Positions 42,272-48,400 of a stretch of 64,000 bases of DNA are shown here, one piece after another. The notes below the pieces were generated by a model. It saw only the letters and a list, made by a program, of their open reading frames with translations. It searched no databases and had not been told where the DNA came from. Numbering within the stretch: position 1 is the stretch's first letter; every line of letters starts with the position of its first letter. Made by a program: the position numbers and the translations under genes. Origin of the DNA: Escherichia coli. GTDB taxonomy: Bacteria > Pseudomonadota > Gammaproteobacteria > Enterobacterales > Enterobacteriaceae. The stretch lies in assembly GCF_041248615.1 (NCBI RefSeq), contig NZ_CP158426.1; one strand, written 5' to 3'.

Positions 42272-42298
42272 GCGCGGTCCCACCCCGCGCTTTTTTTT
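42272..42298 (+). terminator. Rho-independent terminator after adiA
   Basis: gcgcgg-tcccacc-ccgcgc stem-loop followed by tttttttt. Confidence 0.65.
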
Positions 42299-42478
42299 GT
42301 CTGTTATTTACCCTGTAAAAAAATATGTACATGAGAAATTACTATAAAAATTTGTAATATTAGTAAAACTCGTTATTTTTATGCATGTTTATATTCATCA
42401 TACAATTATATAACCATTTCCCGGTATCGCTTCGCTTTAGCGAGAACTGGTCTTTTATTCGCACTCAGGAGTACATGT

Positions 42479-43376: not shown

Positions 43377-44714
43377 ATGTCTTCGGATGCTGATGCTCAC
43401 AAAGTGGGCTTAATCCCCGTCACCCTGATGGTGTCGGGGAATATTATGGGGTCAGGTGTTTTTCTGTTACCTGCAAACCTGGCCTCCACTGGCGGGATTG
43501 CCATTTATGGATGGTTGGTGACGATTATCGGTGCGCTGGGGCTCTCGATGGTATACGCCAAAATGTCGTTCCTCGACCCAAGTCCTGGTGGTTCTTACGC
43601 TTACGCCCGCCGCTGCTTTGGGCCGTTTCTCGGTTATCAAACCAACGTCCTCTACTGGCTGGCCTGCTGGATCGGCAATATCGCCATGGTGGTCATTGGC
43701 GTAGGTTATTTAAGTTACTTCTTCCCGATTCTGAAAGATCCATTGGTATTAACCATCACCTGCGTCGTGGTGCTGTGGATCTTCGTCCTGCTGAACATTG
43801 TCGGTCCGAAAATGATCACCCGCGTGCAGGCCGTTGCCACCGTGCTGGCGCTGATCCCCATCGTCGGGATTGCCGTATTTGGCTGGTTCTGGTTCCGTGG
43901 TGAAACCTATATGGCGGCATGGAACGTCAGCGGCCTGGGCACCTTCGGCGCGATTCAAAGTACCCTTAACGTTACGCTGTGGTCGTTCATCGGTGTGGAA
44001 AGTGCCTCCGTTGCCGCAGGTGTGGTGAAAAACCCGAAACGCAACGTCCCTATCGCCACCATTGGTGGGGTATTGATTGCCGCCGTTTGCTATGTGCTCT
44101 CCACCACCGCGATTATGGGGATGATCCCTAATGCCGCACTGCGCGTTTCTGCCTCGCCATTCGGTGATGCCGCACGGATGGCGTTGGGTGACACCGCCGG
44201 GGCCATTGTTTCCTTCTGCGCAGCTGCGGGTTGCTTAGGTTCACTGGGCGGCTGGACATTGCTGGCGGGTCAAACGGCGAAAGCCGCTGCCGATGACGGA
44301 CTGTTCCCACCAATTTTTGCCCGTGTAAATAAAGCGGGCACGCCAGTGGCGGGGCTGATTATCGTCGGTATTTTGATGACCATCTTCCAGCTCAGCAGCA
44401 TTTCACCAAACGCGACCAAAGAGTTCGGTCTGGTTTCTTCCGTCTCGGTCATCTTTACACTGGTGCCATATCTTTACACCTGTGCGGCGTTACTGCTGCT
44501 CGGCCACGGTCACTTTGGTAAAGCACGTCCGGTATATCTGGCAGTTACTACCATTGCCTTCCTCTACTGCATCTGGGCCGTGGTGGGGTCCGGGGCGAAA
44601 GAGGTTATGTGGTCATTTGTCACCCTGATGGTCATCACCGCCATGTATGCGCTGAATTACAACCGGCTGCATAAAAACCCGTATCCCTTAGATGCACCAA
44701 TAAGCAAAGATTAA
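43377..44714 (+). CDS. adiC: Arginine:agmatine antiporter AdiC
   Basis: 445-aa [43 protein letters not shown]…; paralog of CadB. Confidence 0.95.
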
Positions 44715-44754
44715 TTCCCCTTAATCCAGCAAACATAAAAGCCAACCTTAAGAA

Positions 44755-44771
44755 CTTAAGGTTGGCTTAAT
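44755..44771 (+). promoter_or_regulatory. PmrA (BasR) box CTTAAG-N5-CTTAAT upstream of eptA
   Basis: cttaag gttgg cttaat read directly 47-63 bp upstream of eptA ATG; first half-site lies inside the palindrome aagccaaccttaagaacttaaggttggctt (44739-44768), which could also act as the adiC terminator. Confidence 0.65.
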
Positions 44772-44817
44772 TTTGCTTTGCGAGCATATGCGCACTTTGT
44801 TCGATGGAAACACCGTG

Positions 44818-46461
44818 ATGTTGAAGCGCCTACTAAAAAGACCCTCTTTGAATTTACTCGCCTGGCTATTATTGGCCGCTTTTTATATCTCTATCTGCCT
44901 GAATATTGCCTTTTTTAAACAGGTGTTGCAGGCGCTGCCGCTGGACTCGCTGCATAACGTACTGGTTTTCTTGTCGATGCCGGTCGTCGCCTTCAGCGTG
45001 ATTAATATTGTCCTGACACTAAGCTCTTTCTTATGGCTTAATCGACCGCTGGCCTGCCTGTTTATTCTGGTCGGCGCGGCTGCACAATATTTCATAATGA
45101 CTTACGGCATCGTCATCGACCGCTCGATGATTGCCAATATTATTGATACCACTCCGGCAGAAAGTTATGCGTTGATGACGCCGCAAATGTTATTAACGCT
45201 GGGATTCAGCGGCGTGCTTGCTGCGCTGATTGCCTGCTGGATTAAAATCAAACCAGCCACCTCGCGCCTGCGCAGTGTTCTTTTCCGTGGTGCCAATATT
45301 CTGGTTTCTGTACTGCTGATTTTGCTGGTCGCCGCACTGTTTTATAAAGACTACGCCTCGTTGTTTCGCAATAACAAAGAGCTGGTGAAATCCTTAAGCC
45401 CCTCTAACAGCATTGTTGCCAGCTGGTCATGGTACTCCCATCAGCGACTGGCAAATCTGCCGCTGGTGCGAATTGGTGAAGACGCGCACCGCAACCCATT
45501 AATGCAGAAAGAGAAACGTAAAAATTTGACCATCCTGATTGTCGGCGAAACCTCGCGGGCGGAGAACTTCTCCCTCAATGGCTATCCGCGTGAAACTAAC
45601 CCGCGGCTGGCAAAAGATAACGTGGTCTATTTCCCTAATACCGCATCTTGCGGCACGGCAACGGCAGTTTCAGTACCGTGCATGTTCTCGGATATGCCGC
45701 GTGAGCACTACAAAGAAGAGCTGGCACAGCACCAGGAAGGCGTGCTGGATATCATTCAGCGAGCGGGCATCAACGTGCTGTGGAAAGACAACGATGGCGG
45801 CTGTAAAGGCGTTTGCGATCGCGTACCTCACCAGAACGTCACCGCGCTGAACCTGCCTGGTCAGTGCATCAACGGCGAATGCTATGACGAAGTGCTGTTC
45901 CACGGGCTGGAAGAGTACATCAATAACCTGCAGGGTGATGGCGTGATTGTCTTACACACCATCGGCAGCCACGGTCCGACCTATTACAACCGCTATCCGC
46001 CGCAGTTCAGGAAATTTACCCCAACCTGCGACACTAACGAGATCCAGACCTGTACCAAAGAGCAACTGGTGAACACTTACGACAACACGCTGGTTTACGT
46101 CGACTATATTGTTGATAAAGCGATTAATCTGCTGAAAGAACATCAGGATAAATTCACCACCAGCCTGGTTTATCTTTCTGACCACGGTGAGTCGTTAGGT
46201 GAAAATGGCATCTATCTGCACGGTCTGCCTTATGCCATCGCCCCGGATAGCCAAAAACAGGTACCAATGCTGCTGTGGCTGTCGGAGGATTATCAAAAAC
46301 GGTATCAGGTTGACCAGAACTGCCTGCAAAAACAGGCGCAAACGCAACACTATTCACAAGATAATTTATTCTCCACGCTATTGGGATTAACTGGCGTTGA
46401 GACGAAGTATTACCAGGCTGCGGATGATATTCTGCAAACTTGCAGGAGAGTGAGTGAATGA
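44818..46461 (+). CDS. eptA: Lipid A phosphoethanolamine transferase EptA (PmrC)
   Basis: ORF 44773..46461; 547-aa protein from ATG 44818 ([29 protein letters not shown]…). Confidence 0.93.
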
Positions 46462-47126
46462 AAATTCTGATTGTTGAAGACGATACGCTGTTATTGCAGG
46501 GATTGATTCTGGCGGCGCAAACCGAAGGCTACGCGTGCGATGGCGTGACAACCGCGCGGATGGCGGAACAAAGCCTTGAGGCCGGTCATTACAGCCTGGT
46601 GGTACTGGATTTAGGGTTACCCGACGAAGATGGACTGCATTTTCTCGCCCGTATCCGGCAGAAAAAATACACCCTGCCGGTACTGATCCTCACCGCTCGC
46701 GATACGCTGACCGACAAAATCGCCGGGCTGGATGTCGGTGCCGATGACTATCTGGTGAAGCCTTTTGCGCTGGAAGAGTTACACGCCCGTATCCGCGCCC
46801 TGCTACGACGCCATAATAATCAGGGCGAAAGTGAGCTGATTGTTGGCAATCTGACGCTGAATATGGGTCGCCGTCAGGTATGGATGGGCGGTGAAGAGTT
46901 GATTCTGACGCCCAAAGAATATGCTCTGCTGTCGCGCCTGATGCTTAAAGCAGGCAGCCCGGTGCATCGGGAAATTCTCTACAACGACATCTATAACTGG
47001 GACAATGAACCCTCGACCAACACCCTGGAAGTGCATATCCACAATCTGCGCGACAAAGTGGGCAAAGCCCGTATCCGCACCGTGCGCGGCTTTGGCTATA
47101 TGCTGGTCGCAAATGAGGAAAACTAA
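46458..47126 (+). CDS. basR: Response regulator BasR (PmrA)
   Basis: 222-aa [37 protein letters not shown]…; overlaps eptA stop. Confidence 0.95.
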
Positions 47127-47135
47127 TTGAATCTG

Positions 47136-48227
47136 ATGCGTTTTCTGCGCCGACCAATATCGCTGCGCCAACGGCTGATATTGACCATCGGGGCCATTTT
47201 GTTGGTGTTTGAGCTGATCAGCGTCTTCTGGCTATGGCATGAAAGTACCGAGCAGATTCAGCTGTTTGAGCAGGCGCTACGCGACAATCGCAACAACGAT
47301 CGCCACATCATGCGTGAGATCCGCGAGGCGGTCGCCAGCCTGATCGTCCCCGGCGTCTTTATGGTCAGCCTGACTCTATTTATCTGCTATCAGGCGGTAC
47401 GCCGCATCACCCGGCCGCTGGCGGAGCTGCAAAAAGAGCTGGAAGCGCGCACCGCCGACAACTTAACGCCTATTGCCATTCACAGCGCCACCCTCGAAAT
47501 CGAAGCGGTGGTTTCGGCGTTGAACGATCTGGTCAGTCGCCTGACCAGCACGCTGGATAACGAAAGGTTGTTTACTGCTGACGTCGCGCACGAACTGCGA
47601 ACGCCACTGGCGGGGGTGCGTTTGCATCTGGAACTGCTGGCGAAAACGCATCACATTGATGTAGCACCGTTAGTGGCACGGCTTGATCAGATGATGGAGA
47701 GCGTCTCCCAGCTGCTGCAACTGGCGCGTGCCGGACAGTCATTTTCTTCCGGGAATTATCAACATGTAAAACTGCTGGAAGATGTCATTCTCCCCTCGTA
47801 TGACGAACTCAGTACCATGCTCGACCAGCGACAGCAAACCCTGCTATTGCCAGAGAGCGCCGCCGACATCACCGTTCAGGGTGATGCAACCCTGCTGCGG
47901 ATGTTATTGCGAAACCTGGTAGAAAACGCCCATCGTTACAGCCCGCAAGGCAGCAACATTATGATTAAGCTGCAAGAAGATGGCGGAGCGGTCATGGCCG
48001 TTGAAGATGAAGGACCGGGTATTGATGAGAGTAAATGCGGGGAGTTGAGTAAAGCGTTTGTACGTATGGACAGCCGTTATGGCGGGATTGGTCTGGGGTT
48101 AAGTATTGTCAGCCGCATTACACAGTTGCATCACGGGCAGTTTTTCCTGCAAAACCGGCAAGAGACTTCCGGCACGCGGGCCTGGGTACGGCTGAAGAAA
48201 GATCAGTACGTGGTAAACCAGATATAA
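47136..48227 (+). CDS. basS: Sensor histidine kinase BasS (PmrB)
   Basis: ORF 47127..48227 (track starts at TTG); ATG at 47136 gives a 363-aa kinase (MRFLRRPISLRQRLILTIGAILLVFELISV…). Confidence 0.9.
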   Translation: MRFLRRPISLRQRLILTIGAILLVFELISVFWLWHESTEQIQLFEQALRDNRNNDRHIMREIREAVASLIVPGVFMVSLTLFICYQAVRRITRPLAELQKELEARTADNLTPIAIHSATLEIEAVVSALNDLVSRLTSTLDNERLFTADVAHELRTPLAGVRLHLELLAKTHHIDVAPLVARLDQMMESVSQLLQLARAGQSFSSGNYQHVKLLEDVILPSYDELSTMLDQRQQTLLLPESAADITVQGDATLLRMLLRNLVENAHRYSPQGSNIMIKLQEDGGAVMAVEDEGPGIDESKCGELSKAFVRMDSRYGGIGLGLSIVSRITQLHHGQFFLQNRQETSGTRAWVRLKKDQYVVNQI

Positions 48228-48292
48228 AGAAAGCTGCTGACCACCAGCACGCTGAACACGGTAGTTAAACTTTCATAAACACGGTTTTTCAT
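48203..48292 (-). CDS. pmrR: Small membrane protein PmrR (29 aa), antisense-overlapping the 3' end of basS
   Basis: Hand translation of minus strand from ATG 48292: MKNRVYESLTTVFSVLVVSSFLYIWFTTY*; preceded by GGAGGAGAG and a PmrA box; not in ORF track. Confidence 0.75.
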   Translation of the reverse strand: MKNRVYESLTTVFSVLVVSSFLYIWFTTY

Positions 48293-48336
48293 TGCACTCT
48301 CCTCCGTTAACCTGGAGGAGAGTATGCGCGTCAGAG

Positions 48337-48353
48337 ATTAAGTGAACCTTAAG
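48337..48353 (-). promoter_or_regulatory. PmrA (BasR) box CTTAAG-N5-CTTAAT upstream of pmrR
   Basis: Reverse complement of 48337-48353 reads cttaag gttca cttaat, the same motif as upstream of eptA; 45-60 bp upstream of pmrR ATG. Confidence 0.6.
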
Positions 48354-48400
48354 ACTTCAATTGGCCTGATAAGACAGCGTCTCAGGCCATCCGTTTCAGC

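Follow-up and report, generated by a model that had tools for sequence, protein, structure and literature searches.

In the 64,000-nt stretch of Escherichia coli DNA analysed here (the window), the palindrome between adiC and eptA very probably acts as a stem-loop that ends the adiC mRNA, while its descending arm and the U-rich tail behind it share their DNA with the BasR box and the -35 to -10 spacer of the eptA-basRS promoter. The feature is real, and it consists of two known elements in a compact arrangement, which is a compaction of signals and no new mechanism. The genes of the region follow each other on the plus strand in the order adiA, adiY, adiC, eptA, basR and basS, and the following features make up the junction and its surroundings:

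43377-44714, plus strand: adiC coding sequence (arginine:agmatine antiporter) with its stop TAA at 44712-44714, from the ORF list and the RefSeq annotation under the match
44715-44775, plus strand: adiC 3' UTR up to the mapped RNA 3' end, the primary adiC terminus of Term-seq/TRS
44739-44752, plus strand: 5' arm of the hairpin, AAGCCAACCTTAAG, 14/14 complementary to 44755-44768
44747-44752, no strand assigned: third CTTAAG hexamer, self-palindromic, 8 bp upstream of PmrA half-site 1, with a TTAA core that is invariant in the aligned taxa
44755-44768, plus strand: 3' arm of the hairpin, CTTAAGGTTGGCTT, corresponding to PmrA half-site 1, the spacer and the first 3 nt of half-site 2, from sequence, complementarity and box pattern match
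44755-44771, plus strand: predicted PmrA/BasR box CTTAAG-GTTGG-CTTAAT of the eptA-basRS promoter, an exact YTTAAK-N5-YTTAAK match that agrees with the literature consensus and is conserved
44769-44779, plus strand: U-rich tail AATTTTGCTTT, which doubles as the spacer that separates the box/-35 from the -10 in the eptA promoter; RNA 3' ends lie at 44767-44775
44782-44787, plus strand: candidate -10 hexamer GAGCAT, which contains the nAnnAT that is invariant in alignment A1 and lies 10 nt past the box
44818-46461, plus strand: eptA coding sequence of 547 aa with its ATG at 44818, from the ORF list and annotation
46458-47126, plus strand: basR, from the ORF list and annotation
up to 48227, plus strand: basS, from the ORF list and annotation

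The inverted repeat at 44739-44768 reads AAGCCAACCTTAAG-AA-CTTAAGGTTGGCTT, with arms that are complementary at 14/14 positions and are separated by a 2-nt spacer; it begins 25 nt after the adiC TAA and is directly followed on its 3' side by AATTTTGCTTT (44769-44779). A preliminary description of this DNA had reported both the palindrome and its 25-nt distance from the adiC stop, and its coordinates and strings proved to be exact. RNA folding gave -18.8 kcal/mol for the hairpin alone, with a stem of 13-14 bp, 5 G-C pairs of 14 and an effective loop of 4 nt, and -23.2 kcal/mol for its 71-nt context (z = -4.8 versus dinucleotide shuffles). When the segment 44500-45000 was scanned against Rfam no family was detected, the best scores (18-26 bits versus gathering scores of 49-80) being at chance level. 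The 131 nt at 44700-44830 are identical to MG1655, and the 301 nt around the site were matched in 5412/5426 complete E. coli genomes, where the annotation beneath the match names adiC and eptA.

Within the 64-kb window, 44739-44768 is the longest perfect inverted repeat of the hairpin type. The 40 nt at 44737-44776 are 100% identical in 5383/5411 E. coli genomes, whereas the adjoining upstream 40 nt (44697-44736) are identical in only 3958/5412. According to one explanation, the palindrome arose by chance or is a copy of a dispersed repeat (a REP-like element or the scar of a mobile element) and has no function of its own, and the presence of REP-like hairpins at this junction in other genera speaks for it. 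However, judged from base odds, a perfect 14+14 match is expected only about 2e-4 times per spacer length in 64 kb, the sequence occurs once per E. coli genome (its median of 2 places represents the same site on both strands), and it is near-invariant in those 5383/5411 genomes next to a polymorphic flank. Its rank as the longest such repeat of the window, its single locus and its near-invariance effectively refute a chance or repeat origin, to which we assign next to no probability.

A scan with an intrinsic-terminator pattern reported the hairpin on both strands. The stretch AAUUUUGCUUU contains at least 5 T in 8, as the scan rule for a U-rich tract asks, and is imperfect, with two A's right after the stem; the location of the hairpin just 3' of the stop of the co-directional adiC is as for an intrinsic terminator. 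In the Term-seq data of Dar and Sorek 2018, as re-analysed by TRS (PMC10687069), a primary adiC 3' end is found that is dominant at MG1655 position 4335633 (sheet row 'chr - 4335633 4335641 4335633 1 0 0 0 Primary adiC'; signal 1, three replicates). These data were obtained with strain BW25113 in LB in exponential phase in three replicates, their coordinates had been converted to NC_000913.3, and the conversion to the window was verified as genome = 4380408 - window. Placed on the window, the adiC RNA 3' ends are located at 44767-44775, the dominant one being G44775, 7 nt past the last paired base 44768, and the adiC RNA at the Term-seq/TRS position ends with ...GGCUUAAUUUUG. An end at 44775, within the UUUU run and 7 nt past the stem, is at the canonical position for intrinsic release. 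The reading of the hairpin as a terminator of adiC, which the preliminary description had offered together with the expectation of adiC transcript ends near 44770-44780, is therefore supported by the pattern match and by the dominant Term-seq/TRS end at 44775.

The same Term-seq/TRS sheet contains the end of the adiA terminator, which means that adi transcripts were detectable in that experiment. The adiA 3' ends at 4338106-4338114 correspond to window 42294-42302, and the adiA terminator is a canonical one, with a GC hairpin GCGCGG...CCGCGC at 42272-42290 (+) followed by T8; each adi gene appears to possess its own terminator. As adiC is expressed mainly under anaerobic acid conditions, it is unsurprising that the site is missing from other lists of 3' ends. 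No adiC or eptA 3' end is listed in the supplements of Adams et al. 2021, nor in the TERMITe supplements.

The in vivo evidence for the adiC 3' end comes from one Term-seq dataset, and Term-seq would give the same signal for intrinsic termination and for an RNA that exonucleases have trimmed back to a hairpin. The U tract AAUUUUG is interrupted, and it constitutes no independent evidence for a terminator because it is itself conserved as promoter sequence. Another explanation, which we regard as unlikely, is that the hairpin serves as a stabiliser of the RNA 3' end, the polymerase stopping further downstream (with Rho or in the region of the eptA promoter) and 3'-exonucleases trimming the transcript back to 44775. 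It would agree with the fact that Term-seq maps stable 3' ends and not termination events as such, with the imperfect U tract having AA right after the stem, and with the REP-like hairpins without U tracts that occupy the same junction in Salmonella and several Citrobacter. On the other hand, the end lies inside UUUU exactly where intrinsic release would place it, the hairpin fits the simple terminator pattern, and nothing found points to downstream Rho-dependent ends, all of which speaks against this explanation.

The second signal at the junction is the sequence CTTAAG-GTTGG-CTTAAT (44755-44771), which is located 46 nt before the eptA ATG. In the literature, the PmrA box is defined by a first half-site CTTAAG and a second half-site XTTAAT with a 5-bp spacer and overlaps the -35 of pmrCAB (PMC3973317; PMC10570014). 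Two PmrA domains bind such a box head-to-tail (PMC3973317), and BasR binds the eptA promoter according to a secondary statement in PMC9396075. The exact consensus match and the conservation support the identification of CTTAAG-GTTGG-CTTAAT as a predicted BasR box, and the PmrA box that the preliminary description had proposed for the eptA-basRS promoter stands as such a prediction, being exact in consensus and kept both in sequence and in its distance to the ATG. YTTAAK-N5-YTTAAK was observed 2 times in the window versus 0.06 expected, and both occurrences are at known PmrA targets, eptA and pmrR. The box contains TTGGCT, which resembles a -35, and 10 nt 3' of the box the pattern nAnnAT is invariant in alignment A1 (A69, A72 and T73 of the first sequence). 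The hexamer GAGCAT at 44782-44787 is taken as a candidate -10 because the distance of 10 nt fits a box that replaces the -35 (PMC10570014), and the start of eptA is predicted near A44794. If this start is right, the adiC RNA would end about 19 nt before the eptA RNA begins. We rejected a divergent antisense promoter on the minus strand that would depend on PmrA, as the second hexamer there is CTTTTA and lacks the AA core, and no convincing -10 is present.

From the coordinates it is evident that the 3' arm (44755-44768) is the first 14 nt of the PmrA box and extends from half-site 1 through the spacer to the third nucleotide of half-site 2, and that the terminator UUUU (44771-44774) starts inside half-site 2 and runs on into the promoter spacer. 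The same bases therefore have one use in the RNA and another in the DNA, a dual use that had already been noticed in the preliminary description and is confirmed here at the level of sequence. CTTAAG equals its own reverse complement, which by itself produces part of the palindromy and makes easy an overlap that we interpret as compaction. In the order of events that we propose, a polymerase arriving from adiC would transcribe 44739-44768, the hairpin of 13-14 bp (about -18.8 kcal/mol) would form behind it, and the transcript would be released within UUAAUUUUG, at the Term-seq end 44775. On duplex DNA, phosphorylated BasR would bind head-to-tail to CTTAAG (44755-44760) and CTTAAT (44766-44771), replace the -35 contact and recruit sigma-70 polymerase to the weak candidate -10 GAGCAT (44782-44787), so that transcription would start near 44794. 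We infer this BasR step from the consensus, the conservation and the published work on PmrA promoters. By such an arrangement the autoregulated eptA-basRS operon is likely shielded from acid-induced adi transcription.

Any functional coupling that goes beyond the shared bases, as also suggested in the preliminary description, is unsupported, and in Salmonella and other genera the box persists where the hairpin does not; nothing was found that shows a mechanistic coupling between termination and BasR binding. A literature search retrieved no paper on the overlap of the adiC terminator with the eptA BasR box. In compact bacterial genomes it is common for a terminator to abut or overlap the promoter that follows it. 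Published Term-seq tables already contain the terminus, and the box is described in the PmrA/BasR literature. For both reasons the arrangement has to be considered as known and ordinary.

The conservation of the junction was followed in a table of 25 genomes from Escherichia, Citrobacter, Salmonella, Phytobacter, Enterobacter, Scandinavium and one metagenome lineage. A genome scan for EptA by exact peptide patterns had given no Salmonella, Klebsiella or Enterobacter, which were partly recovered by protein look-ups, and Klebsiella is absent from the sample. The box is kept 45-47 nt before the eptA ATG in 25/25 tabulated taxa, and sequence and distance are held also where eptA-basRS sits at another locus, between cofD and uvrB. 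The latter location was seen in Phytobacter, Enterobacter and Scandinavium (L039-L041, 2380-2500), which have no pmrR there and in which the box reads CTTAAG-GTTGT-CTTAAA and the hairpin is reduced to a 6-bp CCTTAA/TTAAGG mini-palindrome. The 5' arm is identical in Escherichia, C. rodentium and 1/2 C. amalonaticus genomes, the sequence just upstream of it is unrelated, and alignment A1 accordingly displays a sharp conservation edge at the 5' arm across Escherichia, C. amalonaticus and C. rodentium. The gene upstream of the hairpin is adiC in most Escherichia, C. amalonaticus, Salmonella and several Citrobacter, adiY in E. fergusonii, where adiC has been lost, fumB in C. rodentium and C. koseri, and a yjdF-like DUF2238 gene in the metagenome lineage. 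As the upstream gene varies and the conservation starts at the arm, the hairpin seems to be part of the eptA promoter module and to terminate whichever gene precedes it, and 'adiC terminator' describes its role in E. coli. In E. fergusonii (L036, 1641-2500), the same palindrome, again perfect, lies 26 nt from the adiY stop. In C. rodentium (L038) and C. koseri (L037), fumB is located directly before eptA (2300-2500) and the whole adi-mel region is absent, which suggests that the adi/mel block was inserted upstream of a pre-existing module of hairpin plus promoter.

A covariation test of the stem in 21 taxa revealed no compensatory changes, and changes in the 5' arm just break pairs, as does C44747A in Salmonella, C. 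amalonaticus S646 and Citrobacter MGH106; in Salmonella the GG of the box spacer is also changed to CA. Since the box freezes the 3' arm, the stem is supported by conservation without covariation. Salmonella, Enterobacter and several Citrobacter combine an intact box with an eroded hairpin, and in these cases another hairpin is present upstream. Ten genomes have a junction of only 17-26 nt that contains no other hairpin; in 9 of them the palindrome folds at -17.4 to -18.5 kcal/mol and in 1 at -11.4 kcal/mol. By contrast, in only 4/15 genomes with another strong junction hairpin (REP-like or GC-rich, -12 to -47 kcal/mol) does it fold below -15 kcal/mol, the Salmonella palindrome reaching only -0.6 kcal/mol. 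The difference between 9/10 strong hairpins without and 4/15 with another junction hairpin corresponds to a Fisher p = 0.004 in a small sample that is not phylogenetically independent, and with close relatives collapsed, a Mann-Whitney test on hairpin strength gave p = 0.014. A terminator would be expected to erode in this way when a second 3'-end element makes it dispensable. Judged from the retention of the box where the hairpin is eroded, the BasR box would work without the hairpin and the two roles appear to be separable.

As CTTAAG is itself palindromic, the inner 6 nt of the 5' arm form a third PmrA-type hexamer (44747-44752). Its TTAA core is invariant in alignment A1 (columns T34, T35, A36 and A37), and the inner hexamer, as (C/A)TTAA(G/T/A), is kept in 25/25 taxa, including Phytobacter, Enterobacter and Scandinavium, which retain it and have lost the rest of the 5' arm. 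The hexamer may be an extra PmrA contact or residual homology. An explanation that starts from here takes the palindrome as acting mainly at the DNA level, either as an extended BasR operator with a third half-site (inverted or with an 8-bp offset) or as the site of some other symmetric regulator, and the RNA hairpin as a side effect. The persistence of the hexamer in all 25 taxa, even with eptA at a different locus and the remainder of the arm gone, would be in line with it, as would the ability of OmpR-family domains to bind head-to-head (PMC3973317) and the cryo-EM structure of an activation complex in which the PmrA domains are shifted 3 bp upstream of the box (PMC10570014). Yet the outer arm AAGCC/GGCTT is conserved though it is outside any PmrA hexamer, the 8-bp offset is off the 11-bp helical phase of PmrA dimers, and the pmrR box, the other exact PmrA box of the window, has neither an upstream hexamer nor a palindromic extension. 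In addition, a DNA-level role leaves unexplained both the mapped RNA 3' end and the erosion of the outer arm where another hairpin is present, and for these reasons we judge it very improbable.

A more speculative proposal, to which we give quite a small chance, can be formulated in two versions. In the first, the invariant hexamer at 44747-44752 would offer phosphorylated BasR a second register, head-to-head or shifted, and occupancy of the box would then alter the fate of polymerases coming from adiC, by acting as a roadblock or by changing hairpin-dependent release; in the second, a supercoiling-driven cruciform of the perfect, AT-centred 30-mer would switch the box off. If either were true, a single 30-bp element would serve for cross-regulation between acid-induced adi transcription and the lipid A modification that depends on BasR.

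Returning to the preferred reading of a terminator that overlaps a BasR box, the stem-loop resembles the intrinsic terminators of Enterobacteria in its location 25 nt past the stop, its U-rich 3' tail, its end 7 nt past the stem and its stability of about -18.8 kcal/mol, which is within the usual range. It differs from them in a stem that is unusually long and perfect with an AT-rich centre (5/14 G-C), in a U tract that is broken by AA and in a descending arm that is constrained by a protein-binding site and so is not free to co-vary. Similarly, the two hexamers CTTAAG and CTTAAT lie 5 bp apart, some 10 nt in front of a weak candidate -10 and upstream of the known target eptA, as in the PmrA/BasR promoters in which the box replaces the -35 (pmrCAB/eptA-basRS, pbgP/arnB, ugd and pmrR). 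The box itself shows no difference, whereas the extra upstream hexamer and the palindromic extension are specific to the eptA site. Bidirectional intrinsic terminators, as Ju et al. reportedly described them in 2019, have a symmetric hairpin that is flanked by an A tract and, on its opposite side, by a U tract. The present hairpin shares with them its symmetry and a U-rich tract on both strands, but the flanking genes are co-directional and no gene converges on the hairpin. The minus-strand tail UUUUAUGUUU (44738-44729) is a better U tract than the plus-strand tail, and the Term-seq/TRS table lists no minus-strand 3' end at the 44739-44768 hairpin.

The eptA-basRS operon is autoregulated and is responsible for the phosphoethanolamine modification of lipid A and for tolerance to polymyxin/colistin. 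Read-through from the strongly acid-induced adi genes would add BasR, BasS and EptA to the autoregulatory loop, and a terminator placed right at the promoter offers an explanation for the insulation of the operon. As box and stem share bases, altering the BasR box weakens the adiC terminator too and altering the stem can affect the box, and reporter constructs and box mutants need to be interpreted with read-through in mind.

The second exact PmrA box of the window, CTTAAG-GTTCA-CTTAAT, is located at 48337-48353 (-) before pmrR (48203-48292 on the minus strand, 29 aa), a gene that shares 25 nt with the 3' end of basS, which is encoded on the other strand. After the proP stop, directly upstream of the pmrR PmrA box, there is a REP-like hairpin (about 48364-48389), and so the pmrR and eptA junctions have the same layout of a hairpin followed by a PmrA box, although at pmrR the two do not overlap. 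In the 5' leader of pmrR, at 48294-48323 (-), the 10-bp hairpin ACUCUCCUCC/GGAGGAGAGU (-19.9 kcal/mol, z = -3.6) buries the Shine-Dalgarno sequence 4 nt before the AUG, and just past this hairpin a Term-seq/TRS 3' end was mapped at MG1655 4332117 (+), corresponding to window 48291 (-). The leader hairpin and the end behind it could represent an attenuator, a translational control of pmrR or a processed end of the proP RNA.
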